Below, one piece after another: positions 2,559-58,620 of a stretch of 64,000 nt of DNA. The notes beneath the pieces were generated by a model, which saw only the letters and a program-made list of their open reading frames with translations, did not search any database and was not told the DNA's origin. Source of the DNA: Candidatus Methylomirabilota bacterium (GTDB lineage: Bacteria; Methylomirabilota; Methylomirabilia; Rokubacteriales; CSP1-6); contig DATEDO010000105.1 of NCBI GenBank assembly GCA_035281625.1, forward strand, positions 102 to 64,101, in the 5' to 3' direction. The position numbers and the translations under genes are program-made. The number at the start of each line of letters is the position of its first letter. Positions within the stretch are counted from its first letter, which is position 1.

Positions 2559-3491
2559 CTACCGCAGCGCGGGGGCGACGTCCTTGATGAAACGGTCGAG
2601 GGCCTTCTTCTTGTCGGCGGGCAGGAAGAAGGTCGGAATGAAGAGCATGCCCACCCCCGCGTCGCGGAGCTTGCCCAGCTTGTCCTGTATCTGGGCCACG
2701 CTGCCGCCGAGCACGGTGTCGCTGGCCTTCGCCTCGTCGGCGCCCATGCGCGCCATGTAGGCCTTGCGGATCTTCTCCACCTCGGCGGCGGCGTCCGACA
2801 TCACGAGCACCATCACCGCCGAGCGCAGAATCTCCTTCGGATTGCGGCCAACCGTCGCGCAGTGCCCCTCGAGGATCTTGCCCTTGGCGGCCAGGGTGGC
2901 CGGCCCGCCCCAGGTGTTCCAGTGGTCGGCGTGCTTGGCGGCGATCTTGAGCGTCACCTTTTCGCCGCCGCCCCCGATCATGAGCTCCGGGTAGGGCCGC
3001 TGCACCGGCTTGGGCTCGCAGGGCGCGTCATCGAGCGCGTAGAACTTGCCCTTCCAGGTCGCCTTTTTCTCCGTCCACAAGCGCTTGAGCACCTCGCACG
3101 CCTCGTCGAGGCGCGCCAGCCGCTCGCCCACCGTGTAGAAGGGAATCCCGTAAGCCTGGTGCTCGTTCTCCTGCCAGCCCGCTCCGATCCCGCAGATCAG
3201 ACGGCCGTCGGCGATGATGTCGATCTGGGCCGCCATCTTGGCGAGCACCGCGGGATGACGATACGTGTTGCCCGACACGATGGTGCCCACGCGCATGCGG
3301 CGCGTCTCCGCGGCGAGCGCGGCCAGCGTGGTCCAGCACTCCATGGTGTCGCCCACCCGGTCCGTCGTGTTGGGCATGAAGTGATCGGTCACGCAGGCGG
3401 CGTCCCAGCCGGTGGCGTCGGCGTGACGCCAGAGATCCAGCACCTCCGTCCAGCGGGTGCCGCCCATGCCGTTGAAGATCGCGAACTTCAT
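2559..3491 (-). CDS. LLM-class (luciferase-like) F420-dependent oxidoreductase
   Basis: MKFAIF...DHF...GRLICGIGAGW pattern. GGAGGG RBS lies before ATG 3491. Confidence 0.88.
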   Translation of the reverse strand: MKFAIFNGMGGTRWTEVLDLWRHADATGWDAACVTDHFMPNTTDRVGDTMECWTTLAALAAETRRMRVGTIVSGNTYRHPAVLAKMAAQIDIIADGRLICGIGAGWQENEHQAYGIPFYTVGERLARLDEACEVLKRLWTEKKATWKGKFYALDDAPCEPKPVQRPYPELMIGGGGEKVTLKIAAKHADHWNTWGGPATLAAKGKILEGHCATVGRNPKEILRSAVMVLVMSDAAAEVEKIRKAYMARMGADEAKASDTVLGGSVAQIQDKLGKLRDAGVGMLFIPTFFLPADKKKALDRFIKDVAPALR

Positions 3492-3535
3492 GGATTCCCT
3501 CCTTGTCGGGTGGCCCGAGCGTACCATACCGCTCC

Positions 3536-22073: not shown

Positions 22074-22552
22074 GGCGTTTCCTCCAGGAGACGGGGCACC
22101 ACCTTCTCCAGACAGCGGGCGATCTCGTCCCGGCAGTAGCGGAACGCCTCTTCTCCCTGCCCCGCCGGATCCTCGATGTCGCCCCGCTCACCGGCCCATT
22201 CCCGAAGCGTCACCATGGGCCGGCCGGCCGCCTCGCCGAAGGCGGCCAGCATCTCCTTCTGCCGCCCCGTCATCGTGACGATGAGGTCGGCCTCGGCGAT
22301 GAGATAGCGGTGTCGCTTCAGGTCGATGGAGGTCATGTCGTCCTCGGCGAGGTGGACGCCGATCTCCTTCAGGGCCAGCCGCGCGTCCAGCGAGGGCAGC
22401 ATCCCGTCGCGCGCATACGCGGCGATGCCGCCGGAGCGGATCCGGAAGCCGTCCCCGGCGTCGCGGTCGGCCAGCATCTTCTCCAGCAGGACCTGCGCGA
22501 TCACGCTGCGGGCGGTGTTGGCGTGGCAGACCACCAGGACATTCTTCCTCAT
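22070..22552 (-). CDS. Low-molecular-weight protein tyrosine phosphatase
   Basis: VLVVCHANTARS (CX5R(S/T) P-loop) and a DP general-acid motif (IEDPAG). Start ATG 22552 overlaps the upstream stop. Confidence 0.88.
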   Translation of the reverse strand: MRKNVLVVCHANTARSVIAQVLLEKMLADRDAGDGFRIRSGGIAAYARDGMLPSLDARLALKEIGVHLAEDDMTSIDLKRHRYLIAEADLIVTMTGRQKEMLAAFGEAAGRPMVTLREWAGERGDIEDPAGQGEEAFRYCRDEIARCLEKVVPRLLEETP

Positions 22553-23631
22553 CCCTCGGAGCGGGCTCCGGTGTCGGCGAGGGGGCGGTAGTAGGGATTC
22601 CCCTTCGCCGCCCACTCCTGGCGCATGGCGCGAAACTCGGGACCCATGGGATCGGCGCCGCGCATCGGCATGGTCCCCCGCCGGATGGTGAAATCGTGCG
22701 GCGCCAGCTCGCCGCCGCGCGCGAAGTGCCGCGCCGCCGCCTCCGGCTTGCCCGCGCGGTACAGCCACTCGCCGAGCCCGAACTCCGCCCGCGCCTGCTG
22801 ATCGGCATCGCTCGGCAGGGGCTGGAGCGCGCGGGCGGAGAGTCCGGCGGGCAGCGCCGCCGCCTCGCCCTTCACCCAGGCGCGCAGGGCGGTCAGATGC
22901 CGCGCCGACTCGAGCCCGGTAATGTGCTTGAAGGTGTCCGTGCCGAAGGCGACGTCGTTGGGCCGGACGATGCGGCCCGCCTCGTCGATCCAGAACACGG
23001 TGGGGACGTTCACGATGTTGTAGAGATCGGCGAGGCGATGCTCGGTATCCACCAGCGCGGGATGCATCGCCTCCGGACGGCTGGGCTTGGCGGCCTCGAT
23101 CCAGGGCCGCGCGTCCTCCGCGCTCTTGTCCAGCGCCACCGTGATCACGGCGAAGCCGCGGCTGCCCAGCTCCTCGTGGACGGCCTGCCAGACCGGCAGG
23201 TCGAGACGGCAGCCTCACCACGAGGCGTGCGCGACGAGCAGCACCTTCTTGCCGCGATGGTCGCGGAGCGAGTGCCGGCGCCCGGCGAGATCGGGCAGCG
23301 TGAAGTCCGGCGCCTCCAGCGCGGCGAGCGGACGCGCGCGCTCCGCCGCCGCCACGCCGAGGAAGGCGGCGCGCTCCGCCACGTCGACGGCCAGCGGACG
23401 GCCCAGCGCGGTGGCCACCCCGGCCAGATCGACCCCGTCGGCGGATTCCACCGGCGCCCCGCGCACGGGCACGCACATCGCGTCACGGCACAAGCCCTCC
23501 GGCTTGAGCGCCCACCCGATCGCGCGCTCGAGGGCCTCCCGGGAGAGGCGCACCGCGCCGTCGCGTACCCGCGCCGGCACCGCGGTCGGCCGGCCATCGT
23601 CGATGATCGTGAACGTCGCGTCGTCGGCCAT
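22549..23631 (-). CDS. Thioredoxin-fold (TlpA/ResA-like redoxin) protein with in-frame TGA at the active-site position: selenoprotein candidate
   Basis: Track ORFs 23215..23925 and 22549..23148 share a frame and are split only by TGA 23215-23217. Read-through gives KKVLLVAHASW-U-GCRLDLPVWQAVHEELGSRGFAVITVALD. AGGAG RBS precedes ATG 23631. Confidence 0.7.
23184..23200 (-). other. Putative bacterial SECIS-like hairpin downstream of UGA 23215-23217
   Basis: The RNA CCUGCC-GGUCU-GGCAGG has a 6-bp stem and a G-rich 5-nt loop. The stem begins 14 nt after the UGA and the loop about 20 nt after it. Confidence 0.5.
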
Positions 23632-24331: not shown

Positions 24332-25192
24332 ATGGCCATCAAGCTCGGGCTCTTCTCGATGAACCAGGACGCCTGCAGCCACCCCGACGCGGCGGCGCGC
24401 GTGGCGCGGGCCGCGGAGGCCGCGGGCTTCGAGTCGCTCTGGTGCGGCGAGCACGTGGTGCTCCCCGACCCGCAGGCGCCCCCCTCGCCGATGGCCCCGG
24501 GCGATCGCATTCTCGATCCCCTCGTGGCCCTCAGTTTCCTCGCCGCGCACACCGATCGCGTGCGCCTCGGCACCGGCATCATCATCGTGCCGCAGCGCAA
24601 TCCCGTGGTGCTGGCCAAGGAGCTGGCGAGCCTGGACGTGCTCTCGAACGGCCGGCTCATCTTCGGCATCGGCGTGGGGTATCTCGAGCCGGAGTTCCGC
24701 GCCATCGGCGCGCCCTTCGCGCAGCGCGGCGCCGTCACCGACGAGTACGTGGAGGCGATGCAGGCCCTGTGGACGCAGGAGCGTCCCGCGTTCAAGGGGC
24801 GCTTCGCCGCCTTCGACAAGGTGCAGGCGCATCCGCAGCCGCGGCAGCGCGGCGGGCCGCCCATCGTGGTCGGCGGCCGAACGACCGCGGCGTTTCGTAG
24901 AGCGGTCACGCGCGGTCACGGCTGGTACGGGTTCGGCCTCGACGTGGAGGGCGCGGAGAAGGCGCTCGCCGGCCTGCGCGAGGCGGCGGCGCGCGCCGCG
25001 CGTCCCGCCGCGCTCGGTCCGCTCGAGCTCTCGCTGACGCCGCGCGGCTTCGGCCTCGACCGGGCGATGGCCGAGCGCTACGCGGCGCTGGGCGTCCACC
25101 GCCTCGTCCTCCGGCCCCCCAAGGATCTCGACGTCGCGGGCCTCGAGGACTTCGTGCGCCGCGCGGGCGATGACCTGGTCGGGCGGGTGTGA
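24332..25192 (+). CDS. LLM-class F420-dependent oxidoreductase
   Basis: ESLWCGEHVV...NGRLIFGIGVGY...PPIVVGG pattern. Confidence 0.88.
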   Translation: MAIKLGLFSMNQDACSHPDAAARVARAAEAAGFESLWCGEHVVLPDPQAPPSPMAPGDRILDPLVALSFLAAHTDRVRLGTGIIIVPQRNPVVLAKELASLDVLSNGRLIFGIGVGYLEPEFRAIGAPFAQRGAVTDEYVEAMQALWTQERPAFKGRFAAFDKVQAHPQPRQRGGPPIVVGGRTTAAFRRAVTRGHGWYGFGLDVEGAEKALAGLREAAARAARPAALGPLELSLTPRGFGLDRAMAERYAALGVHRLVLRPPKDLDVAGLEDFVRRAGDDLVGRV

Positions 25193-33667: not shown

Positions 33668-34681
33668 ATGAAATTCGGCATCGGACTCTCGGTGCAGCAT
33701 CGTCCGGAGGAGTCGCAGGCGCAGCGCTTCGCCGAGCATCTCGAGCAGGTGCGGCTGGCCAAGCGCGTGGGCTTTCACTCCATCTGGTCGAGCCAGCACT
33801 ATCTCTCCGACCCCTTCACCTACTTCCAGCCCATTCCCACGCTGGCGCGGGTGGCCGCCGAGGCGGAGGGCATGACGCTGGGCACGGGCGTGATCCTCCT
33901 CCCGCTGCATCAGCCGGTGGATCTCGCCGAGCAGCTCGCCACGCTGGACGTCATCACGGGGGGACGGCTCATCGTCGGGCTGGGCCTGGGCTACCGCGAC
34001 GTGGAGAACCTCGCCATGGGCCATGACCCGAGCGCCCGCGTCGGGCGGCTCGTCGAAGGGCTCCAGGCGCTGGAGCGACTGTGGTCGGGCGAGCCGGCCT
34101 CGCTCGACGGCAAGCACTTCCAGCTGCGCGACGTGCGCATCTCCATGCCGCCGCTGCAGCGGCCGCGCCCGCCCATCTGGCTGGCCGCCAACGGCGATGC
34201 CGGGGTCAAGCGCGCGGCGCGGCTGGCCGACACGTGGCTCATCAATCCGCATACCACACTCCCCACGCTGGAGCGGCAGCTCGCCCTGTTCCACGCCGAG
34301 CGCCGCGCCGCCGGCCGCCCGCCCGCGCCGGAGATTCCGTTGATCCGGGAGTGCTACGTCTCGGACAGCCAGGCCGGCGCCTTCGCCGAGGCCCAGCCCA
34401 TCCTGGAGCCGAAGTACAAGGCCTACCAGCGCTGGGAGCAGGACAAGGCCCTGCCCAAGGGCGAGACCTGGAGCGACGCCTTCGCGGAGCTGGCCCGGGA
34501 CCGCTTCATCCTGGGCGATCCCGCGCGCGTCCGCGAGGAGATCGCGCGCTACCGAGAGCGGCTGGGCGTCACGTCCATGGTGTTCCGGCTGCAGTGGCCG
34601 GGCATGGACCAGGCGCGCGTGCTCAGGACGATCCGACTCCTCGGGGAGAAGGTCTTGCCGCACGTTCCGCCCGCCCTTTAG
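33668..34681 (+). CDS. LLM-class flavin/F420-dependent oxidoreductase
   Basis: MKFGIGL...SSQHY...GRLIVGLGLGY. Start ATG 33668 lies within track ORF 33284..34681. Confidence 0.88.
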   Translation: MKFGIGLSVQHRPEESQAQRFAEHLEQVRLAKRVGFHSIWSSQHYLSDPFTYFQPIPTLARVAAEAEGMTLGTGVILLPLHQPVDLAEQLATLDVITGGRLIVGLGLGYRDVENLAMGHDPSARVGRLVEGLQALERLWSGEPASLDGKHFQLRDVRISMPPLQRPRPPIWLAANGDAGVKRAARLADTWLINPHTTLPTLERQLALFHAERRAAGRPPAPEIPLIRECYVSDSQAGAFAEAQPILEPKYKAYQRWEQDKALPKGETWSDAFAELARDRFILGDPARVREEIARYRERLGVTSMVFRLQWPGMDQARVLRTIRLLGEKVLPHVPPAL

Positions 34682-37222: not shown

Positions 37223-38248
37223 TCAAACTTTGCCGTCGAGGCAAGCGCGCAGGGCGGCCCCGAGCTCGGCAGCGTGCGTGGTGATGGCGGTCAGGTGCGC
37301 GCCGGGAATCTCGCGGATGATGGCCTGCGGAGCGGCCTCGCGCCATGCCCGCGACGCGCCCTCCCGCATCGCGTACGGCTCCTCGGCGGGCCAGAAGATC
37401 GTGAGGGGGCCCGCGAAGCGCCCCGGACGATACCCGCGCATGATCCGGCGATAGCGCTCGAACAAGGACGGGGAGGTTTCCGCGGGCGGCGCCGCGGGCA
37501 ACTCCGGCGGGCGGCGGCCCAGGAGGCGGCGCACGCGGCGCCGGATGCCGGCCCGGAGGCGGTCCACCGTCCAGCCCGATTCGGCCAGCCGCGCGCCGGG
37601 CAGATTCGGCGCGATGAGGATCAACCGCTCGACGACTTCTCCCTCGGCGATGAGCGTCCGCGCCATCTCGTAGGCCACGAGGCCACCGTTGCAGTACCCG
37701 GCGAGCCGATACGGACCCGCGGGACGCAGCCGGCGCAGCTCGGCGAGCGGCTCCGCGACCATGTCCTCGATGGTGGGGGGCAGGGGGCGGCCGTCGACGC
37801 CCAGCGGGGCGAACGCGTGCACCGGCTGATCCCTGCCGAGATGCCCGGCCAGGGCGAGACAGTAGAAGCCGCCGCCGTTCATGTCCCCGTGCATCAGGAA
37901 GAGCTCCGGACGCTGTCCGGGGCCGGTGTTCAGGTTGCGGCCGATGTACTTCCGCGCGCTGCCGCTCCGGCTCTCGGAAGCTTTCATCAGCCCGGCGAGC
38001 GTCTCGATCGTCACGTCGAGGGAACGAGCGGGCGGCGGGGCCGCGTGGCCGCACGCTCGCTCGACCTCGGCCAGCATGCGGGCGGCCTGCTCGGGGGTGC
38101 CGCCGAGATGGGCGAAGCGCTCCGTCACGCTCGCGATCCGGACGCCGAGGACGTCCTGCCAGATGTCGCGCACCATCACTTCGAGCGGATCGAGAGGCCG
38201 GCGGGGCGGCGGCGGCGTCTCGCGGGCCCTCCCGCGCGCGGGGGTCAC
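37223..38248 (-). CDS. Carrier-protein-like domain lacking the Ser, fused to a type-I thioesterase with a GxCxG nucleophile motif
   Basis: The N-terminus has VRDIWQDVLGV...FAHLGGTPEQA, where GG-T-P replaces GG-x-S. The TE part has LFLMHG...GYCNGG (Cys186). GTGA overlap with the ACP gene. Confidence 0.75.
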   Translation of the reverse strand: MTPARGRARETPPPPRRPLDPLEVMVRDIWQDVLGVRIASVTERFAHLGGTPEQAARMLAEVERACGHAAPPPARSLDVTIETLAGLMKASESRSGSARKYIGRNLNTGPGQRPELFLMHGDMNGGGFYCLALAGHLGRDQPVHAFAPLGVDGRPLPPTIEDMVAEPLAELRRLRPAGPYRLAGYCNGGLVAYEMARTLIAEGEVVERLILIAPNLPGARLAESGWTVDRLRAGIRRRVRRLLGRRPPELPAAPPAETSPSLFERYRRIMRGYRPGRFAGPLTIFWPAEEPYAMREGASRAWREAAPQAIIREIPGAHLTAITTHAAELGAALRACLDGKV

Positions 38249-47417: not shown

Positions 47418-47567
47418 GCGGCGCGCGCGACGTGAGCGGGCGGGAAAATATGGCGTCCCGTGACGCGCGGCGGCGCGGCCGGCGTAGGACTTACACGGGC
47501 GGCGTGTAGGGATTACATCGTCGACTACCGGCGTCCGCCTCCGTGACCGGCAGCCGCGGCGCCGACC

Positions 47568-48686
47568 TCATCCGTGCCGGCGTGCGGCGCCATCTGATGA
47601 GCGAGTTCGGTCTGCTGCGCGCGGGCGGCTCGGCGCCCGGGGCGTCGCGGGGCCGCCGAGCAGCGCGGTGAGGCGCGGGCGCGCGCCCGCCTCGATTTGC
47701 TCCCGCGTGCACTGGCGCGGCGCCTTGTCGGGCCGCCAGCGGACGAAGCGCGTGCCGTGGCGGAAGCGCCCGCCGCTGACGTGATCGTAGCCGACTTCCA
47801 CGACCAGCCGCGGCGCCAGCGGCACCCACTCGCCGGAGCGCTCGGTGCTCCAGCGGCTGGGGCCGCCCGGCGCGTTGCCGGTGAAGCCGGAGCCGCCCAT
47901 CAGCGGCCGCAGCTTCCCGAGGAGCGCTCGCCGGTCGGCCACGCTGAAGCCGGACGTGAAGCCGACGTGGTCGAGCCGGCCCTGGCCGTCGTAGAGGCCG
48001 AGCAGGAGCGAGCCCACCACCTTCCCCGCGGAGGCGTACCGGAAGCCGCCCACCACGCAGTCGGCGGTGCGGAGACGCTTCACCTTCACCATCGCGTCCC
48101 GCGTGCCGGACGCGTAGGGAGCGTCCAGGCGCTTGGCGACGACGCCGTCCAGGTTGCCGCCGGCCCGCGAGAGCCAGGACTGCGCGGCCTCGAGCTCGGT
48201 GGCCGCGGGCGAGAGTCGAATGGTGGCGGCGCGGGCGAGATGCGCGCGGGCGAAGGCCTCGAGGCGCGGCCGCCGCTCCGCGAGAGGTCGCTCGACGAGC
48301 GGGCGCCCGTCGGCGTCCACGAGGAGATCGAAGGCGATGAGCCAGGCCGGCGTCTCCTCGGCAAGCCGGCGCACGCGCGAGGGCGCGGGGTGGATGCGCT
48401 GGAGCAGATCGTCGAAGGAGAGCCGGCCGTCGACGGGGACGACCAGCTCCCCATCCAGCACGAAGCGCCGGGCCGGGAGCGCGCCCACCGACGCCACCAC
48501 GTCCGGGAAATAGCGCTCCAGCGGCTTGCCCGCCTTGGACCGGAGCGCGACCGACTCGCCATCGCGGAAGACGAGGCAGCGGAATCCATCCCACTTGGGC
48601 TCGTACTGCCAGCCGGGTCCGGTGGGGATCGCGTCCACGAGCCGCGCCTCCATGGGCGGGTAGTCCGGGCGGAGCGGCAGCGTCAT
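47568..48686 (-). CDS. ligD: ATP-dependent DNA ligase (stand-alone LigD ligase domain)
   Basis: YEPKWDGFRC (adenylation Lys), LDGEL, DGVVAKR and VKVKR motifs. ATGA overlap with the upstream gene. Confidence 0.92.
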   Translation of the reverse strand: MTLPLRPDYPPMEARLVDAIPTGPGWQYEPKWDGFRCLVFRDGESVALRSKAGKPLERYFPDVVASVGALPARRFVLDGELVVPVDGRLSFDDLLQRIHPAPSRVRRLAEETPAWLIAFDLLVDADGRPLVERPLAERRPRLEAFARAHLARAATIRLSPAATELEAAQSWLSRAGGNLDGVVAKRLDAPYASGTRDAMVKVKRLRTADCVVGGFRYASAGKVVGSLLLGLYDGQGRLDHVGFTSGFSVADRRALLGKLRPLMGGSGFTGNAPGGPSRWSTERSGEWVPLAPRLVVEVGYDHVSGGRFRHGTRFVRWRPDKAPRQCTREQIEAGARPRLTALLGGPATPRAPSRPRAADRTRSSDGAARRHG

Positions 48687-49636
48687 GCCACGCGCTCGAG
48701 TCGGAAGCGGCCGGTCCGGGCCAGCATCGGCGCGTAGAGATCGCCCAGGCGCTGGAGCCGGGCGGGCGCATTGTCGATCCGGAAGTCCTCGACGCGCGCG
48801 CCGCCGGCCACCTCGTCCCACGTGAGGGGCATGGACACGGGCGCGCGCGGGCGGGGGCGCACCGAGTACACCGAGGCGAGCGTGCGTCCCCACGCGTTCT
48901 GGTTGTAGTCCACCAGCACCCGGCCCGCCGGCCGCCGGGCCACGCGGTACTCCGCGGTCACGAGGCTCGGCCGCTCGCGGGCGAGCGTCTGCGCCACCGC
49001 TTTGGCCACCCGCCACACCGTCTTCTGGTCGGGGCCGCGCACGATGGGCACGTAGATGTGGATGCCCCGCGAGCCGGTGGTCTTGGGATAGGCGGACATG
49101 CCCACGTCCTCGAGCGCGGCGCGCACGAGCAGGGCCGTCTCGCGCACCCGCTCGAACCCGGCGCCCGGCACCGGGTCGAGATCGAAGTGGAGATAGTCCG
49201 GCCGGTGGACGTCGTCGCAGCGCGCATACCACTGATTGAGATCGATGCAGCCGAGGTTCACCACCCACAGCAGTGACAGGAGGTCCTGCACCATTGGGAA
49301 GTCGATCACGTTGCCGGACGCATGATCGATGCGGCACGTCTCGATCCAGTCGGGGCGCGGCGCCGGCGCGCGCTTCATGAAGAAGAACGGGCCGGCCGCG
49401 CCATCCGGGTAGCGCTTCATGACCATGGCGCGGTCGCGGAGATGCGGCAGCAGGTACGGCGCCACCGCCACGTAGTAGCGCAGGAGGTCGCCCTTGGTCA
49501 GGCGGGGGCGCGCCCAGAACGGCTTGCGCAGGTTGGTGAGGGTGACGGCGCGACCGCCCAGCCGCACCTCCACGGTGTCCCGGTCGGGCGGGACGACCGC
49601 CGCGGGGTCGAGGGCGGGCCGCGCGCGCGGGCTCAT
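48683..49636 (-). CDS. LigD polymerase/primase domain protein (archaeo-eukaryotic primase fold)
   Basis: DYLHFDLDP, KTTGSRGIHIYVP and VLVDYNQN motifs. Confidence 0.92.
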   Translation of the reverse strand: MSPRARPALDPAAVVPPDRDTVEVRLGGRAVTLTNLRKPFWARPRLTKGDLLRYYVAVAPYLLPHLRDRAMVMKRYPDGAAGPFFFMKRAPAPRPDWIETCRIDHASGNVIDFPMVQDLLSLLWVVNLGCIDLNQWYARCDDVHRPDYLHFDLDPVPGAGFERVRETALLVRAALEDVGMSAYPKTTGSRGIHIYVPIVRGPDQKTVWRVAKAVAQTLARERPSLVTAEYRVARRPAGRVLVDYNQNAWGRTLASVYSVRPRPRAPVSMPLTWDEVAGGARVEDFRIDNAPARLQRLGDLYAPMLARTGRFRLERVA

Positions 49637-50247
49637 GGCGCGCGCACGAGACGGGGCGGTCGCACGCCGTGGCGCACCGCGCCGCGCACGCCGACGTAGT
49701 CGAGCTCCGCGCCCACGCGGGCGCAGCGCAGGAGCAGGCCTCCGCGGCTCATGTCGCCGCGCCCCACGAAGTCGGCGGGGAAGCGCAGGCGCTCGCCGAA
49801 GACCTCCAGGAGCGGGTCGAGATACTTGCCGGTGGCGATGCTGCCCAGGAGCACCACGTCGCAGCGCGCGCCCAGGAGCGGCGCGAAGCGGAGCGCGTCG
49901 CGCCGGAGGGGCTCCACATAGCGCGGGTTCCCCGCGTCGATGTCCACTTCGGCGAAGCGGCGCAGCCGCGCCAGGTCCACCATCTCCACCGCCGGCACGA
50001 GCCCGTCGGTGGGGGTGATCACGAGCACGCCGGAATGGCCGGCGGGCGGACGGGCGAAGGCCTCGGCGTAAGCGAGCTTGCCGCGGAAGTAGAGCCCGCT
50101 GAGGAACGAGAAGACCTCGCCCAGGGGCGCCCCGCCGGGGCCGCGCAGGCGCTGGGCCAGATCGAAGCGGGCCGCGGGGCTGAACACGAGCCGGGCGCGC
50201 TCGCCGCCGCAGTGCGCGGGCGAGAGCAGGAAGATCCGCCGCTTCAC
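49633..50247 (-). CDS. Hypothetical protein (204 aa) embedded in the PolX-LigD operon
   Basis: GTG 50247 overlaps the PolX stop (GTGA), and its own stop overlaps the LigD-pol ATG (ATGA). Sequence: RIFLLSPAHCGGERARLV...VVLLGSIATGKYLDPLL...FVGRGDMSRGGLLL. No family recognised. Confidence 0.65.
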   Translation of the reverse strand: MKRRIFLLSPAHCGGERARLVFSPAARFDLAQRLRGPGGAPLGEVFSFLSGLYFRGKLAYAEAFARPPAGHSGVLVITPTDGLVPAVEMVDLARLRRFAEVDIDAGNPRYVEPLRRDALRFAPLLGARCDVVLLGSIATGKYLDPLLEVFGERLRFPADFVGRGDMSRGGLLLRCARVGAELDYVGVRGAVRHGVRPPRLVRAP

Positions 50248-51986
50248 CGGGGGCCCACCGGCGCCACCGCCCGGGCGAATCCGGCCGTGTTCAGGGTGTT
50301 CAGCACCTCGTCGCGTCGCACCCAGCCGCGCCGCGCGATGATCGTCCCGTAGCGGAGGTTGTCCAGCTCGTCGACGGCGTGGGCATCCGTCGAGATGACG
50401 AAGCGGAGCCCGCGCTCGCGCGCGGCCCGCAGCCAGCGGGGCGCCATGTCGAGCCGGTGCGGATCCCCGTTGATCTCGATGGCCGCGCGCGAGGACGCCG
50501 CCGCATCCAGAACCGCCTCCACGTCGACCTCGATGGGCGGCCGCGAGGGGATGAGGCGCCCCAGGGCGTGGCCCCAGATCTTGAAGCAGGGATGAGCCAT
50601 CGCGCGCGTGAGCCGTCGCGTCATCTCCGCCGGCCCCATCCGGTGCCGCTGATGGATGCTGGCGATGATGACGTCGAGGCGCTCGAGAACGGCGTCGGGG
50701 TAGTCGAGCGCTCCGTCGGCGAGGATGTCGGACTCGGTGCCGCGGAGCAAGCGCACCGACACCTTCTCCTGCACGCGGTCGATCTCGTCCCACTGCGCGC
50801 GCAGCCGGTCCACGGTGAGGCCGTTCGCGTAGGTCGCGGTGGGCGAGTGGTCGGTGATCGTGAGGTACCGCATGCCGCGCGCCTCCGCCGCGCGCGCCAT
50901 CTCCTCGACCGTGTTGCGGCCGTCCGAGTACACGGTGTGGCAGTGCACGAAGCCCTGCACGTCGTGCATCGCCACCAGATCGTCGGGCAGGCGGCCGGCG
51001 AGAGCGGCCTCGATCTCGCCGGTGTCCTCGCGAAGCTCGGGCGGAATGAACGGCAGGCCCAGATGCGCGTAGAGCTCCGGCTCGTCCTTCGCGGACAGCG
51101 GGGTGTCCCGCCCCGCTCGCGTGAGACCCGCGGGCCCGAGGCGCAGCCCCCGCGCTTCCGCGATGCCGCCGAGGCGCGTCAGGTGCGCGCGGGCGCCGGT
51201 GGCGTGGAGGAGCGCGGCGGCGTGGCGGTCCGGACGGGTCACCCGCACCTCGAGGGGCAGCCCGCTCTCGAGCACCGCCCGGTGAAGGTCGGGCCGGCTC
51301 TCGGTGATCGACACCACGCCGGGCAGCGCGAGCAGGTGCCCCCGCGTCGCCGCCGGCGTGCCGGAGGCGGCCACGATCTCCAGCCGGTCCACCAGCTCGG
51401 CGCCCCGGCGGAGATCGCCCGCGATCTCGACCGCGGTCACCCCGGGCGCCCGCCGCAGGTGCGCGAGGACGGGATCGGCGTCGGCGAGCGCGTGCGACAG
51501 GAGGGCGCGCGCCGGTGCCGGCTCCTCCAGCCGCCGGATGGCTTCGAGGAGGCGCGCTTCCGTCTTCTCGCCGAATCCCTTCACGCCGCGGACACGGCCG
51601 GCCTCCGCCGCCGCCCGGAGGTCGGCGATGGTCTCCACGCCGAGGGCCTCGTGGAGCGCGGCGATCCGGGCCGCGGGGAGCCGGAGGCGAGCCAGCTCGG
51701 CCGCGCCGGGCGGATGCCCCGCGCGCAGCGCTTCGAGGGTCTCCGATCGGCCCGTCTGGCGCAGCTCGCTGATGCGCGCGGCGAGGCCGGCCCCGATGCC
51801 CTGCAGCCCGGTGAGCCGCCCCTCGGCGGCGAGTCGCTCGAAGGTCGCGTCGTCGAGCGACTCCAGGACCCGGGCGCCGCGCGCGTAGGCGCGCGCCTTG
51901 AAGGCGTCCTCGCCGGACAGGTCGAGGAGGCGTCCCATCTCGCGCAGCGCCCGCGCGACGCCGAGCCGGTCGTTAGCAAGGGCCAT
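50244..51986 (-). CDS. polX: Family X DNA polymerase with C-terminal PHP phosphoesterase domain (PolX)
   Basis: HhH motifs (GIGAGLA, GFGEKT). PHP motifs HCHTVYSDG, ITDHS and STDAH. Confidence 0.9.
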   Translation of the reverse strand: MALANDRLGVARALREMGRLLDLSGEDAFKARAYARGARVLESLDDATFERLAAEGRLTGLQGIGAGLAARISELRQTGRSETLEALRAGHPPGAAELARLRLPAARIAALHEALGVETIADLRAAAEAGRVRGVKGFGEKTEARLLEAIRRLEEPAPARALLSHALADADPVLAHLRRAPGVTAVEIAGDLRRGAELVDRLEIVAASGTPAATRGHLLALPGVVSITESRPDLHRAVLESGLPLEVRVTRPDRHAAALLHATGARAHLTRLGGIAEARGLRLGPAGLTRAGRDTPLSAKDEPELYAHLGLPFIPPELREDTGEIEAALAGRLPDDLVAMHDVQGFVHCHTVYSDGRNTVEEMARAAEARGMRYLTITDHSPTATYANGLTVDRLRAQWDEIDRVQEKVSVRLLRGTESDILADGALDYPDAVLERLDVIIASIHQRHRMGPAEMTRRLTRAMAHPCFKIWGHALGRLIPSRPPIEVDVEAVLDAAASSRAAIEINGDPHRLDMAPRWLRAARERGLRFVISTDAHAVDELDNLRYGTIIARRGWVRRDEVLNTLNTAGFARAVAPVGPR

Positions 51987-51998
51987 ACCGCCACCGCC

Positions 51999-53180
51999 TC
52001 AGATCAATGGCCGCAGGTCGACCCGACGCCCCTCGGCGGCGGACAGATACGCCCCATAGATGACGGCCGTGACGTCGCGGGCGAGCGCCCCGCCGGCGAG
52101 CGGCTCGCGCTTGGTCGCCACCGCCTCCACGAAGTCCTGGATCTCCTGCGGGTAACCGGAGGTCCAGTCCTCGTCGGGCTGTGGGCTGGACCAGCCCGCC
52201 TTGGTCTCGAGCTTCTCCACGAGGTACTCGGAGCCGAAGACGGCGGGGTCCGGGGCGTAGGCCTGCACGGTGTCGTTGGGATTGATGTTGCAGATCACGA
52301 CCGCCTTGGCGCCATAGACGATCATCTGGTTGCGGATGCCGCCCAGCACGGTGTCCGCGGCGGAGATCTGGGCCACCGTGCCGTCGTCGAAGCCGATCAG
52401 CATGGTGCCCCAGTCCTCGACGTCGGCTCCCTCCACCGTGTTGAGGTAGCGCGGCGTGGTCGCGCGGAACGTGTCGGTGGCGGCAAGGTTCGCGGTCTCC
52501 GCGCTCACCGACGCCGGCCGGATGGCGCGGCCGCGCAGCCGCTGTCCCTCGTCGGCCTTGAGGTAGAGCGCGGCGCCGAGGGGATGGCAGGCCTTGCCGA
52601 TGAGCGAACCGCCGCCGCCGGTGACCCACCGCTTGTTCACCGGGGCGTGCGTGCCCCCGTGGCTCTCCTCGCCCACGAGGCGGAGAATCGGCCCGCCGGC
52701 GGCGGCGAGGAGGCGCCGCGCCTTCTGGATGGGCGGGGCGTACACCCAGTTCTCCGCATAGCAAAGGCGCACGCCCGCCTGCGCGCAAGCCTGGAGCACC
52801 GCGTCGGCCGAGGCCAGGGCGCTGCGCAGCATCTCGGCGCGGGGCGTCGCGACCTCGCCGAAGAAGCCGGTCAAGGGCTTTTCCACGATGACGTGCTTGC
52901 CGGCGCGCGCGGCTTCGATGGCCATCGACGCGTGGAGATGCGAGGGAACGCAGAGGTCGACCAGCTCCACCGCGCGGTCGTCGAGCACCGCGCGGAAGTC
53001 GGCGACGGCCCGCCGCACCGCGAACTCGCGGGCGAACGCCTCGGCGCGCGCGGGACGCGCCGCCGTCACCGCCGCCAGGTCGACCTCGATGCCGCGGACG
53101 TGCCGATAGGCCTCCGCGTGCAGGCGGGCCACGAAGCCCGCTCCGACCACTCCGACGCCGATCCGTTTACGCTCCGCCAT
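51999..53180 (-). CDS. Gfo/Idh/MocA family oxidoreductase
   Basis: IGVGVVGAGFVARLH Rossmann motif and VIVEKPL. Confidence 0.9.
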   Translation of the reverse strand: MAERKRIGVGVVGAGFVARLHAEAYRHVRGIEVDLAAVTAARPARAEAFAREFAVRRAVADFRAVLDDRAVELVDLCVPSHLHASMAIEAARAGKHVIVEKPLTGFFGEVATPRAEMLRSALASADAVLQACAQAGVRLCYAENWVYAPPIQKARRLLAAAGGPILRLVGEESHGGTHAPVNKRWVTGGGGSLIGKACHPLGAALYLKADEGQRLRGRAIRPASVSAETANLAATDTFRATTPRYLNTVEGADVEDWGTMLIGFDDGTVAQISAADTVLGGIRNQMIVYGAKAVVICNINPNDTVQAYAPDPAVFGSEYLVEKLETKAGWSSPQPDEDWTSGYPQEIQDFVEAVATKREPLAGGALARDVTAVIYGAYLSAAEGRRVDLRPLI

Positions 53181-53980: not shown

Positions 53981-55300
53981 TCACTTCCCCATCAGGGCGT
54001 TCGGCAGCCAGGTGGCGAGCGGCGGCGCCACCGCCACCAGCCCCAGCATCACGAGCCCCAGGATCACGTACGGCGTGACCGCCCAGAACACCTGCCGCAT
54101 GGTGATCGAGCGCGGGGCGACGCTCTTCATGGTGAAGAGAAGCATGCCGAAGGGCGGCGTGAGGAGCCCGAGCTGCATGCACATGAGGTACAGCACGCCG
54201 AACCAGATGGGATCGAAGCGGTAGGTTTCGACCAGCGGCATGAAGAACGGCAACGTGATGAGCATCATGCTCACCTGGTCGACGAAGCAGCCGAGGACGA
54301 GCAGGATCAGCATCATCACCGTCATGACCATGAAGGGGCTGAAGTTGGCCTCCTGCACCGCCGCCACCAGCCCATTGGTGGCGCCCGAGAAGGTGAGGAT
54401 CTGCGAGAAGGTGGTCGCCCCCACGATGATGAACAGGATGACGCCGGAGATCGCCGCCGTCCCCATCAGCGCCTTCATGAGCCCGTTCCAGGTGAGGGCG
54501 CGGTAACCCGCCGCCATCACCACCGTCGCCACCGCGCCGACCGCGGCGGACTCGGTCGGCGTCGCCCAGCCCGCCGCCATCGCAAGCACGACGACCACGA
54601 AGATCACCACCAGGGGGAAGACGTACACGACGAGCGGCCGCCAGCGGGCCCAGCCGCGCACGGGGTCGTGCTCGAACGGCGGGGCCAGGCCCGGGTTCAT
54701 CGCGGTGCGCACCACGATGTAGCCCACGAACGACGCGGCGAGGAGCGCGCCGGGGACGATCCCGGCGAGGAGAAGACGCGAGATCGAGATGTTGGCGAGG
54801 CTGCCCAGCAGCACGGTGAGCGCCGAGGGCGGGATCAGCATGTCCACGCCGCCGATGGCGATGATGGGGCCCATCGCCATGGCGGGCTGATAACCCCGGC
54901 GCAGCATCTCGGGGAGCATGAGGCTGCCGAGCAGCGCGGTGGTTGCGATGGTGGAGCCGGAGATGGCCGAGAACACCGTGCCCGCGACCACCGCCACCAC
55001 CGACAGCCGGCCAGGCACGCGCGCGATGAGACGGTCGATGGCGTCGATGGCCTTCATGGCCACGCCGGTATGGAACAGCACTTCCCCCATCAGCACGAAG
55101 AACGGGATCGGCGTGAGCGAGAAGCTCGCGATCGACGCCACGCCGTTGCGGATCATCTGCACCAGCCCGGCGTCCTTGCCGAGCCACACCCAGGCGCCCA
55201 CCACGTTGATGCCGAGGAACGCGAAGGCGGCGGGCAGGGCCGCGGCGAGCAGCACCGAAAGAATGCCGAACAGCACGGTCGCGGCCAACCACCAGACCAT
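53981..55300 (-). CDS. dctM: TRAP transporter large permease
   Basis: 439 aa, polytopic. Start trimmed to ATG 55300. Confidence 0.9.
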   Translation of the reverse strand: MVWWLAATVLFGILSVLLAAALPAAFAFLGINVVGAWVWLGKDAGLVQMIRNGVASIASFSLTPIPFFVLMGEVLFHTGVAMKAIDAIDRLIARVPGRLSVVAVVAGTVFSAISGSTIATTALLGSLMLPEMLRRGYQPAMAMGPIIAIGGVDMLIPPSALTVLLGSLANISISRLLLAGIVPGALLAASFVGYIVVRTAMNPGLAPPFEHDPVRGWARWRPLVVYVFPLVVIFVVVVLAMAAGWATPTESAAVGAVATVVMAAGYRALTWNGLMKALMGTAAISGVILFIIVGATTFSQILTFSGATNGLVAAVQEANFSPFMVMTVMMLILLVLGCFVDQVSMMLITLPFFMPLVETYRFDPIWFGVLYLMCMQLGLLTPPFGMLLFTMKSVAPRSITMRQVFWAVTPYVILGLVMLGLVAVAPPLATWLPNALMGK

Positions 55301-55314
55301 GGGCGGGCGCGGCC

Positions 55315-55809
55315 CTAGGCGTGCGGGCCGCGGCCGGCGAGCGCGCCGCCGCGCACCAAGCGGCGCACGAACTCGACGGCGAGGAAGGCGAAGCACAGGG
55401 GGACGGGCGCGTAGAGCCACCACTCGGGGAAGACCACCGACTTGATCACCATCGAGCTCTGCTGGGCCGAGCTGACCACCGCCCGCCACCCGTAGATCAC
55501 GAAGATCACGGACACCGCCAGCCCCACCCCGTCCGAGAGGCGCTCGAGCGCGCGGGCCGCCTTCACGGGGATGGCGGTGAGGAGCACGTCGAGCCGCACG
55601 TGCTCGTTGCGATAGAGCAGCCAGGGGGCTACGAGGAAGGTGGCGAGGGGCAGCCCGTACTCCGACACTTCGAGGATCCAGGGCAGCGTGCCGACGCCGA
55701 GATTGCGCGCGACGACGTCGCCGGTCACGAGGAGGGCGAGCAGACCGAGCAGCAGCGCGGCCACCACCGCGCCCGCGCGGAGCAGCCGTCCGTAGGCGCG
55801 CTCGAGCAT
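55315..55809 (-). CDS. dctQ: TRAP transporter small permease
   Basis: 164 aa with 4 TM helices, located between the DctP and DctM genes. Confidence 0.88.
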   Translation of the reverse strand: MLERAYGRLLRAGAVVAALLLGLLALLVTGDVVARNLGVGTLPWILEVSEYGLPLATFLVAPWLLYRNEHVRLDVLLTAIPVKAARALERLSDGVGLAVSVIFVIYGWRAVVSSAQQSSMVIKSVVFPEWWLYAPVPLCFAFLAVEFVRRLVRGGALAGRGPHA

Positions 55810-55816
55810 CCGCGCG

Positions 55817-57901
<2,085 letters not shown>

Positions 57902-57905
<4 letters not shown>

Positions 57906-58429
57906 CGCGTCAGCGCTTTCACGACCACGTCGACGACGAGATCGGCCTTCTTGATGGCCTCGTCCTCCGGAATGCCGCCCAGGGGATGGGGAACGAGCGC
58001 GAGCGGCAGGTCAGCCATGCCGCGATTCTTCGACTCGAGCGTGGCGAGCTGCTCGAACTCGTTGGTCCCGAGGACGACGGACGGGACGCCCTTCTGCTCC
58101 AGCACGATGGCGCCGTGGATACTCCACGACGTGCACGACCCTCAGTCGGCGCTGCCGACCAGGGCGACGTCGCACGTCGTGAGCGCCTCCAGGATCGTGG
58201 GCGACGGCGCCCCCGCGATACCCTTCTCGCGCTTCACGACCTCGCCCGCTCCGTAGCGCTCCTGCAGCCGCCGCGCCACCGCGAGCATGAGCGTCCCCGC
58301 ATTGGCCTTGCTGTTGTCGAGGATGGCGATCCGCTTCCCCGCCAGGCTGTCCACCCGCTTGGCGAGCCCCGCCGCCAGGATCTTCGGCTCGGCGGTGGGG
58401 TCGTACAGGGTCACGTCCTTGCCGCTCAT
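57902..58429 (-). CDS. U-G-S-C motif protein with in-frame TGA: selenoprotein candidate (175 codons)
   Basis: Track ORFs 58142..58429 and 57902..58105 share a frame and are split only by TGA 58142-58144. Read-through gives VALVGSAD-U-GSCTSWSIHGAIVLEQKGVPSVV...LVPHPLGG. GGGAGGAG RBS precedes ATG 58429. Confidence 0.7.
58111..58131 (-). other. Putative bacterial SECIS-like hairpin downstream of UGA 58142-58144
   Basis: The RNA CGUCGUGGA-GUA-UCCACGGCG forms a 9-bp stem including one G.U pair. The stem starts 10 nt after the UGA, and the GU-containing loop is about 20 nt downstream. Confidence 0.5.
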
Positions 58430-58620
58430 GGTGTCTCCTCCCGGAAGTGAATGGGACCGGCCCCGGCAGGCCGACCGTGCGGCCGATAGTACACCAGCGA
58501 GGGTGGCTACGCGCGGAGGGCGCGGACCGACGCCTCAGAGACGAGGAGCTCGTCCCGCGTCCGGCCGCCGTAGCCGATCGTGAAGACCAGCGGCCGGTCC
58601 CTCGCCATGCATCTTGCCCG

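Follow-up and report, generated by a model that had tools for sequence, protein, structure and literature searches.

A probable UGSC-family selenoprotein gene and its 364-residue partner in a Candidatus Methylomirabilota contig

The bacterial selenocysteine insertion sequence (SECIS) requires a G/U-containing loop and lies about 11 nt beyond the UGA codon. In the fdhF gene of Escherichia coli, the minimal element is an upper stem-loop placed 11 nt after the UGA, with a G-U apical loop that is bound by SelB. One family of selenoproteins, the "UGSC-containing protein," has been described since 2007-2008 by Zhang and Gladyshev, with ABI76733.1 of Hyphomonas neptunium as its exemplar (PMC1976440, PMC2398784). 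In ocean metagenomes, it ranks among the selenoprotein families of highest abundance, the Global Ocean Sampling (GOS) sequences containing 255 selenocysteine (Sec) against 21 Cys forms (PMC1976440, PMC2398784), and a 2026 review equates it with the NCBIfam family NF041046 (PMC13188914). Here, we analyze a stretch of 64,000 nucleotides from a Candidatus Methylomirabilota bacterium (assembly GCA_035281625.1, contig DATEDO010000105.1, positions 102 to 64,101), hereafter called the window, in which a gene of this family at 57902..58429 on the minus strand is interrupted by a TGA at 58142..58144. We propose that this apparent stop is very probably a selenocysteine codon. The gene adds a member to the UGSC family as already described and does not represent a new kind of selenoprotein.

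The interrupted reading frame and its homologues

Two open reading frames (ORFs) of the minus strand, 58429..58142 (95 codons) and 58105..57902, share one frame; their sole interruption is the TGA at 58144..58142, and every one of the 12 codons that join them (58141..58106) is a sense codon. Read through this single in-frame TGA, the gene comprises 175 codons plus a stop, with the putative Sec at codon 96 as the U of a U-G-S-C motif. The upstream piece starts at an ATG at 58429 and is preceded, by direct reading of the sequence, by the Shine-Dalgarno sequence GGGAGGAG at 58442..58435, the GGAGG being separated from the ATG by 7 nt. For the downstream piece, the GTG at 58105 is the only start candidate, and the nearest GGAG, 17 nt upstream, is too distant to provide it with a Shine-Dalgarno sequence. 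At its other end, the gene stops with a TGA (57904..57902) that shares bases with the ATG of the gene behind it (57905..57903). The initial annotation of this DNA had described the two same-frame pieces with their 12 joining codons, a strong ribosome-binding site upstream, an internal GTG lacking a Shine-Dalgarno sequence downstream, and an ATGA coupling to the next gene, all of which are borne out. It had also called for the TGA to be re-checked: the identical TGA-terminated ORF of 95 amino acids is recorded in the independent data sets ENA ERZ27257124 (where contig k141_2619482 corresponds to the window with an offset of 4037 bases), Logan SRR5195118, and JGI 3300043331, an agreement that makes a read or assembly error unlikely.

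For searches with family models, the U of the read-through protein was replaced by C. The product matched the Pfam family PF24696 ("UGSC family") with 155.4 bits (cut-off 25) and an E value of 2e-45 over residues 8-174, and this alignment, above the gathering score, covers the whole domain (profile positions 2-171 of 172). The only NCBIfam match was NF041046, "UGSC family (seleno)protein" (122.2 bits, E value of 1.6e-35). A search of 5.8 billion proteins returned many products of 96-97 residues that stop at ...GSAD and fewer full-length proteins carrying CGSC, a pattern typical of selenoproteins, and in the alignments A1 and A2 the GSAD-U-GSCT of the window faces GSAD-C-GSCT, so that the Sec and Cys forms share the motif column. 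The closest named relatives come from metagenome-assembled genomes (MAGs) of Methylomirabilota/Rokubacteria.

A scan for related loci that took a single genome for each GTDB species yielded 80 of them, to which two copies of the window's own locus were added. The TGA precedes G-S-C-T in all 82, which belong to Methylomirabilota, Chloroflexota, Acidimicrobiia, and other MAGs, and the protein downstream of the TGA is conserved; in the full-length homologues, the codon is TGC or TGT. Hence the test put forward in the initial annotation, that homologues should align across the TGA with either TGA or Cys in the same column, came out in favor of a continuous gene.

These data bear directly on the possibility that the TGA is a real stop, be it in a pseudogene, through an assembly error, or between two small proteins of 95 and 67 amino acids. 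Gene callers split the locus in this way in every source, and a few full-length variants with a sense codon in place of the TGA do occur in short contigs. However, the TGA is kept in every one of the 82 loci across phyla, purifying selection acts on both pieces and on the 12 joining codons, the second piece has neither a usable start codon nor a Shine-Dalgarno sequence, the Cys homologues are continuous, and three independent assemblies agree. As for the variants, they keep the downstream hairpin described below and each come from one short contig, as would be expected of errors or of mutations that arose recently. We therefore regard a genuine stop as highly improbable.

The variants were noticed as the top full-length matches of the protein search (P0001, P0002, and P0004), whose residue in the Sec column is Ser, Leu, or Arg and which owe their rank to their uninterrupted ORFs. 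In the loci of P0002 and P0004 (L091 1501..2031 and L092 132..662, both on short single-sample contigs), the codons are TCA and TTA, each one base away from TGA, and the SECIS hairpin is intact; for P0001, known at the protein level, a CGA codon is deduced from its Arg. Sequencing errors, or else mutations of very recent date, probably account for these variants.

Reassignment of UGA to a standard amino acid such as Trp or Gly, as is generally known to occur in some uncultured bacteria, deserves next to no credence here. TGA ends 44 of the 67 called genes of the window (the two Sec-site TGAs included), among them the UGSC gene itself at its own terminus, and is the commonest terminator, which argues that UGA is not reassigned; moreover, homologues have Cys at the Sec column, not Trp or Gly, and the UGA is accompanied by a conserved local hairpin. 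The central proposal of the initial annotation, namely, one cistron with a UGA decoded as Sec within U-G-S-C and followed by a SECIS-like hairpin, is thus sustained by the invariant TGA, by the CGSC homologues, and by covariation in the hairpin, and comparative sequence analysis strongly supports decoding of the UGA as Sec via a downstream SECIS.

The hairpin downstream of the UGA

The candidate SECIS is a hairpin of 21 nt at 58131..58111 on the minus strand, C-GUCGUGGA / GUA / UCCACGGC-G, with a 9-bp stem, a GUA apical loop, and a calculated energy of -12.9 kcal/mol. It begins 10 nt after the UGA when the 9-bp stem is counted and 11 nt after it in an 8-bp version. The initial annotation had placed a SECIS-like hairpin with a GUA loop about 10 nt past the UGA; this placement holds, and the structure turns out to be conserved with covariation. 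Across 44 distinct sequences, 96% of the pair cells hold standard pairs, and in three of the nine pairs both bases have changed in a compensatory manner (G-C to A-U, U-G to G-C, and G-C to C-G). None of 500 shuffles reached the observed covariation, and the signal collapses when the register is slid. All 65 unique sequences have GUA, GUG, or GUU as their apical loop.

Constraint at the nucleotide level points in the same direction. Codons +3 to +10 past the TGA show zero synonymous variation in 73 sequences, and the Ser codon is AGT in 73 of 73, which is unusual for DNA with 71.5% G+C; the four-fold degenerate codons that flank the hairpin have an entropy of about 1 bit. As controls, we used the Cys-form genes, represented by two distinct genes: one with TGC in locus L084 and one with TGT, seen in identical form in loci L085 and L086. 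The 21 nt in the same register fold with -5.5 and -2.9 kcal/mol in these genes, versus a median of -12.9 kcal/mol in the TGA genes. Conversely, a strongly diverged Sec paralogue in L084 has an 8-bp hairpin of different sequence with a GUUG loop in the same register (-16.2 kcal/mol). Weak in the Cys forms and present in the divergent Sec paralogue, the hairpin tracks the UGA and not the protein sequence. These comparisons indicate that the hairpin is under RNA-level selection, and it is the comparison with other loci, not the fold energy of the window's own copy, that sets it apart from chance.

Based on this anatomy and on the comparative data, we suggest that the UGA at 58144..58142 is read as selenocysteine in translation and that the 21-nt hairpin, 10-11 nt downstream, would act as a bacterial SECIS by recruiting SelB-GTP-Sec-tRNA(Sec) to the ribosome.

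The partner protein, the predicted fold, and a possible chemistry

The gene that follows (56811..57905, minus strand) encodes a protein of 364 amino acids, and an ATGA overlap couples its translation to that of the UGSC gene. This partner had no Pfam, NCBIfam, or PDB sequence match, and PDB sequence searches with UGSC and with the partner gave only noise. In about 70 related loci, it comes directly after UGSC, with 44-80% identity. The Cys-type UGSC genes also adjoin partner paralogues, in either order, one contig having two modules, and UGSC and partner form a single ORF in loci L064-L066. In a profile search of 1.84 billion representatives, the partner family comprised 7174 clusters (50% identity) at an E value of ≤1e-3; the best 150 representatives included 54 fusions, 50 in the order UGSC-partner and 4 in the order partner-UGSC, as well as 4 tandem partner repeats. 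In most fusions, the UGSC part breaks off precisely where the Sec codon lies; P0352 is an example of a natural Cys-type fusion. The conservation of the gene pair and its frequent fusion, whichever of the two comes first, make a strong "Rosetta-stone" argument and provide good support for the view that UGSC acts together with the 364-residue partner. A fusion of UGSC with a domain termed 'Unknown_1' was mentioned in 2008 (PMC2398784), and the partner probably corresponds to this domain.

Several features of the modules were noted in passing. In L084 (7001..12333), a Cys-type UGSC gene is followed by two partner paralogues, and the opposite strand carries the divergent Sec-type UGSC gene with a partner of its own. 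The tandem repeats of the partner domain occur among P0247, P0340, P0413, and P0418. Several MAGs yielded at least two loci, so the UGSC/partner modules are multicopy within genomes. The fusions P0333, P0339, P0354, and P0430 have IGGS, WSGV, IGAA, and SGAP at the motif together with an intact partner; UGSC domains devoid of Cys and Sec may have a nonredox, structural role in some paralogues.

We obtained an AlphaFold2 (AF2) model for P0003, a Cys homologue that is 71% identical to the UGSC protein of the window. The model (pLDDT 91.9, pTM 0.85) has a (beta-alpha)5 topology and places the Sec/Cys position between the strand 88-92 and the N-terminus of the helix 97-112. The 50 Foldseek matches listed from the PDB are generic and mostly flavodoxin-like (TM ≤0.52), including the FMN reductase MsuE, azoreductases, CpaE receiver-like domains, B12-binding domains, and PTS IIB, and the predicted fold of UGSC is accordingly flavodoxin-like and not thioredoxin-like. 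A thioredoxin-like fold had been suggested for UGSC in 2008 (PMC2398784), and a U-x-x-C motif at a helix N-terminus is indeed what thioredoxins have. Nevertheless, the model of P0003 does not support this suggestion: the topology predicted is (beta-alpha)5, no thioredoxin-fold protein is found among the 50 listed matches, and nearly every UGSC gene has a partner gene beside it or fused to it, which leaves UGSC as a thioredoxin-fold oxidoreductase a very unlikely alternative. From the motif, the interchange of Sec and Cys, and the model, we infer that the U-x-x-C pair at the helix N-terminus functions as a nucleophile/redox pair.

The initial annotation had further pointed to a likeness to the selenoprotein B subunits of glycine and proline reductases (GrdB/PrdB). 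Membership in that family does not stand: the UGSC protein had no match at an E value of ≤1 to PF07355 or to the NCBIfam selenoprotein-B models (TIGR01917/01918/04483), and 16 diverse UGSC proteins had none to GRDB/selenoprotein-B models at an E value of ≤10. With regard to the Sec core, this silence is uninformative, since the Pfam GRDB model (PF07355), as tested on PrdB/GrdB-like GOS sequences, ends one residue before the Sec, presumably owing to truncated source sequences. A prespecified comparison was made of the UGSC alignment with 26 PrdB/GrdB-like GOS sequences, taken from Dataset S1 of PMC2398784. With hhalign, the two profiles aligned over 74 columns with a score of 36.3 (P 2.6e-4), in a register that pairs the two Sec positions, the second Cys with a Cys, and the E..G(V/I)xT(V) strands with each other; the controls were all lower (12.5 for the reversed alignment, 20.5 for the best of 150 column shuffles, and 29.1 for the best of 150 block shuffles). 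The similarity of the Sec core is thus suggestive, short of a proof of homology, and this part of the proposed likeness survives in that weaker form.

Could UGSC nonetheless be a genuine selenoprotein B, i.e., a subunit of a pyruvoyl-dependent enzyme of the glycine- or D-proline-reductase type? The hhalign result and the common layout of strand, UxxC, helix, E..G(V/I)P(S/T)V, and P.G are in line with it, and the GRDB model says nothing on the Sec region. On the other hand, beyond the missing family matches and an HH-suite probability of 42%, only 95 residues precede the Sec, leaving out the GRDB domain of 150-350 residues, and neither this locus nor the related ones contain a gene of the GrdE/PrdA type: the partner and the recurrent neighbors have no Gly_reductase domain (PF09338), the partner being without any Pfam match. 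Membership of UGSC in this family is in our view unlikely; perhaps UGSC works like selenoprotein B while being no member of its family. As to structures, PMC11229817 mentions none for PrdB, and none figures among the Foldseek matches listed.

Two further sets of data touch on function. The neighbors that recur around UGSC loci, none of them universal, encode short-chain dehydrogenases, Amidohydro_3 and Amidohydro_2 proteins, luciferase-like monooxygenases, enolase-superfamily proteins, and ABC, MFS, or TRAP transporters. Judging from this gene content, the UGSC/partner pair is set among genes for the catabolism of small molecules, and a genome has several paralogous modules. In addition, P0374 (695 amino acids) consists of a partner fused at its C-terminal side to a pyridine nucleotide-disulfide oxidoreductase (Pyr_redox_2) that resembles thioredoxin reductase and carries a CAVC motif, a possible clue to the electron donor.

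Overall, we are confident of a reading in which a single 175-residue UGSC gene, with its UGA decoded as Sec by means of the hairpin, contributes to a two-component enzyme together with the 364-residue partner. A number of results weigh against this reading or against parts of it. On the decoding side, the 64-kb window contains no tRNA gene, hence no tRNA-Sec, and no selA, selB, or selD was found in it (as covered by gene tables from 4 kb to the end and, for the first 4 kb, by a Pfam scan); upon shuffling, the fold energy of the isolated 66-nt stretch is not significant (z of -1.15); Rfam returned no SECIS or other credible RNA family, either for the whole window at the gathering threshold or for 57850..58500 at an E value of ≤10; and the equivalog cut-off of NF041046, 125 bits, is marginally missed, by about 3 bits. 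On the side of the enzyme, the structure of UGSC is a prediction for a homologue and not for the window protein, the HH-suite probability quoted above is low, and the partner-thioredoxin-reductase fusion is a single representative. Nor does a redox role appear to be universal in the family: among 16 full-length fused UGSC domains, both Cys are present in 10 (as CGSC, once as CGNC), the first Cys alone in 2, and neither in 4. Lastly, the AF2 model of the partner (pLDDT 84.7, with low confidence in a highly conserved loop, 167-176) had weak Foldseek matches in the PDB (TM 0.2-0.28) and no confident structural relative (TM 0.25), so that modeling leaves the chemistry of the partner unconstrained. 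Conserved polar residues of the partner are T40, N77, R150, R153, D168, K177, E184, H216, and H259. Class I fumarate hydratase and Toblerone-fold amide hydrolases came up among the matches of the partner and were not used, their TM being only 0.2-0.28.

Our working model is that UGSC is most likely the selenium-bearing subunit of a two-component enzyme whose other subunit is the partner encoded at 57905..56811. The Sec would sit in the U-G-S-C loop, where a strand leads to the N-terminus of a helix in a flavodoxin-like domain, and would cycle with the nearby Cys via a selenenylsulfide. The variable catabolic and transport neighbors suggest that each UGSC/partner module handles its own small organic substrate. 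More speculatively, the enzyme would perform reductive chemistry on a transported small organic substrate and be re-reduced by a thiol/disulfide system, a proposal that draws on the weak GrdB/PrdB similarity, on the one thioredoxin reductase fusion, and on the catabolic neighborhoods. Extended to the whole family, this becomes a tentative idea to which we give less than even weight, i.e., that UGSC and its partner of about 360 residues form a widespread, unrecognized selenoenzyme in which a minimal GrdB/PrdB-like core and a catalytic subunit devoid of a close solved structure catalyze reductive steps, each specific to its substrate, as part of catabolic operons in aerobic bacteria from soil and water, with electrons from a system of the thioredoxin reductase type.

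Genomic setting and comparison with known systems

Downstream of the partner gene, after a gap of 22 nt, the minus strand carries genes for a TRAP transporter: the substrate-binding protein DctP (55817..56788, PF03480), the small membrane subunit DctQ (55315..55809, PF04290), and the large membrane subunit DctM (53981..55300, PF06808; coordinates mapped from the gene table of L083). Neither these genes nor the upstream gene resembling 3-hydroxyanthranilate dioxygenase (3-HAO) are conserved neighbors of UGSC, DctP being absent from the other loci, and they therefore say little about the function of the family. The spacer between the 3-HAO-like gene and UGSC (58430..58620, minus strand, 191 nt) contains a short ORF with ...RPLVFTIGYGGRTRDELL..., and in a JGI contig whose flanking genes are the same, an intact DUF488 gene of 143 amino acids occupies this place; the spacer may contain a deletion remnant of such a gene, and a 33-residue fragment from it had no Pfam match. 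A scan for promoters and terminators was uninformative. Elsewhere in the window, and next to UGSC modules in related loci, we noted many luciferase-like monooxygenase genes and a gene resembling F420H2-dependent quinone reductase (2559..3527, the region of 25019..25192, and 33668..34681), which suggests F420-linked catabolism in the lineage. The minus strand of 47500..52000 encodes PolX (HHH_8/PHP), an unannotated protein of 204 amino acids, a LigD primase-polymerase, and an ATP-dependent DNA ligase, with an MreB-like gene adjoining; this cluster is a repair set of the nonhomologous end-joining type.

The window contains a second gene of this kind, retrieved by a scan for pairs of coding-like ORFs in the same frame that are split by a single TGA. 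At 22549..23631 on the minus strand, the TGA 23215..23217 joins fragments of 138 and 199 codons, which gene callers list as two "hypothetical" proteins of 138 and 199 amino acids, into a product of 360 residues that reads ...LLVAHASW-U-GCRLDLP.... The product has an AhpC/TSA match across the junction and matches NF041054, "ResA-like WAxxUGC motif-containing protein," with an E value of 1.5e-72, and a CCUGCC/GGCAGG hairpin with a GGUCU loop lies 14 nt past the UGA. An LMWPc gene follows with an overlap of 4 nt. Two other same-frame TGA junctions, at 37223 and 51999, were rejected as Sec sites; they are ordinary stops of adjacent genes. That two genes from known selenoprotein families occur within 35 kb supports the idea that the source organism decodes Sec. 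A literature search on selenocysteine in Rokubacteria found nothing useful.

For annotation, the consequence is that a single selenoprotein should replace the two "hypothetical protein" fragments, and likewise for the second gene of the window and for dozens of related MAG loci. Few selenoprotein families are as abundant in environmental metagenomes as UGSC, and what it does is a question of long standing. The near-obligate and often fused partner devoid of Pfam coverage, the flavodoxin-like predicted fold, and a possible distant link to glycine and proline reductases offer experimental handles, and the unannotated partner family and the possible reductase link in particular make that question more testable.

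With respect to the SECIS of E. coli fdhF, the candidate hairpin has its stem 10-11 nt after the UGA and a G-U loop from 20 nt, all inside the coding sequence, as in the known element. It differs in the size of its loop, which is GUA with 3 nt or, should the closing A-U pair open, one of 5 nt, in the absence of a bulged U, and in that the hairpin matches no Rfam model, the role of SelB being putative. Compared with the UGSC family as known, nothing essential differs: the end-to-end match to the family model, U-G-S-C at the Sec/Cys column, and a length of about 175 residues are the same, the window copy coming from a Methylomirabilota/Rokubacteria-type soil MAG and not from a marine sample. The ResA-like gene shares with the UGSC gene the interruption by TGA, the splitting by gene callers, and a hairpin with a G-U loop, whereas its product is an unrelated protein with the thioredoxin fold of AhpC/TSA and a UGC motif, and it has no partner of the 364-residue family.

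The comparison with GrdB/PrdB is the one that bears on chemistry. Like these proteins, UGSC has a UxxC motif after a beta-strand, followed by a helix, then by a strand with E..G(I/V)P(T/S)V and, further on, by P.G, and it is encoded beside a larger partner subunit. Electrons are supplied by a thiol/disulfide system in the known GrdB/PrdB cases, and one UGSC partner is fused to a domain resembling thioredoxin reductase. In contrast to GrdB/PrdB, the partner of UGSC is unrelated in sequence to the pyruvoyl proproteins GrdE/PrdA, and the hosts of UGSC are presumably aerobic soil bacteria, unlike the Stickland fermenters in which GrdB and PrdB operate.

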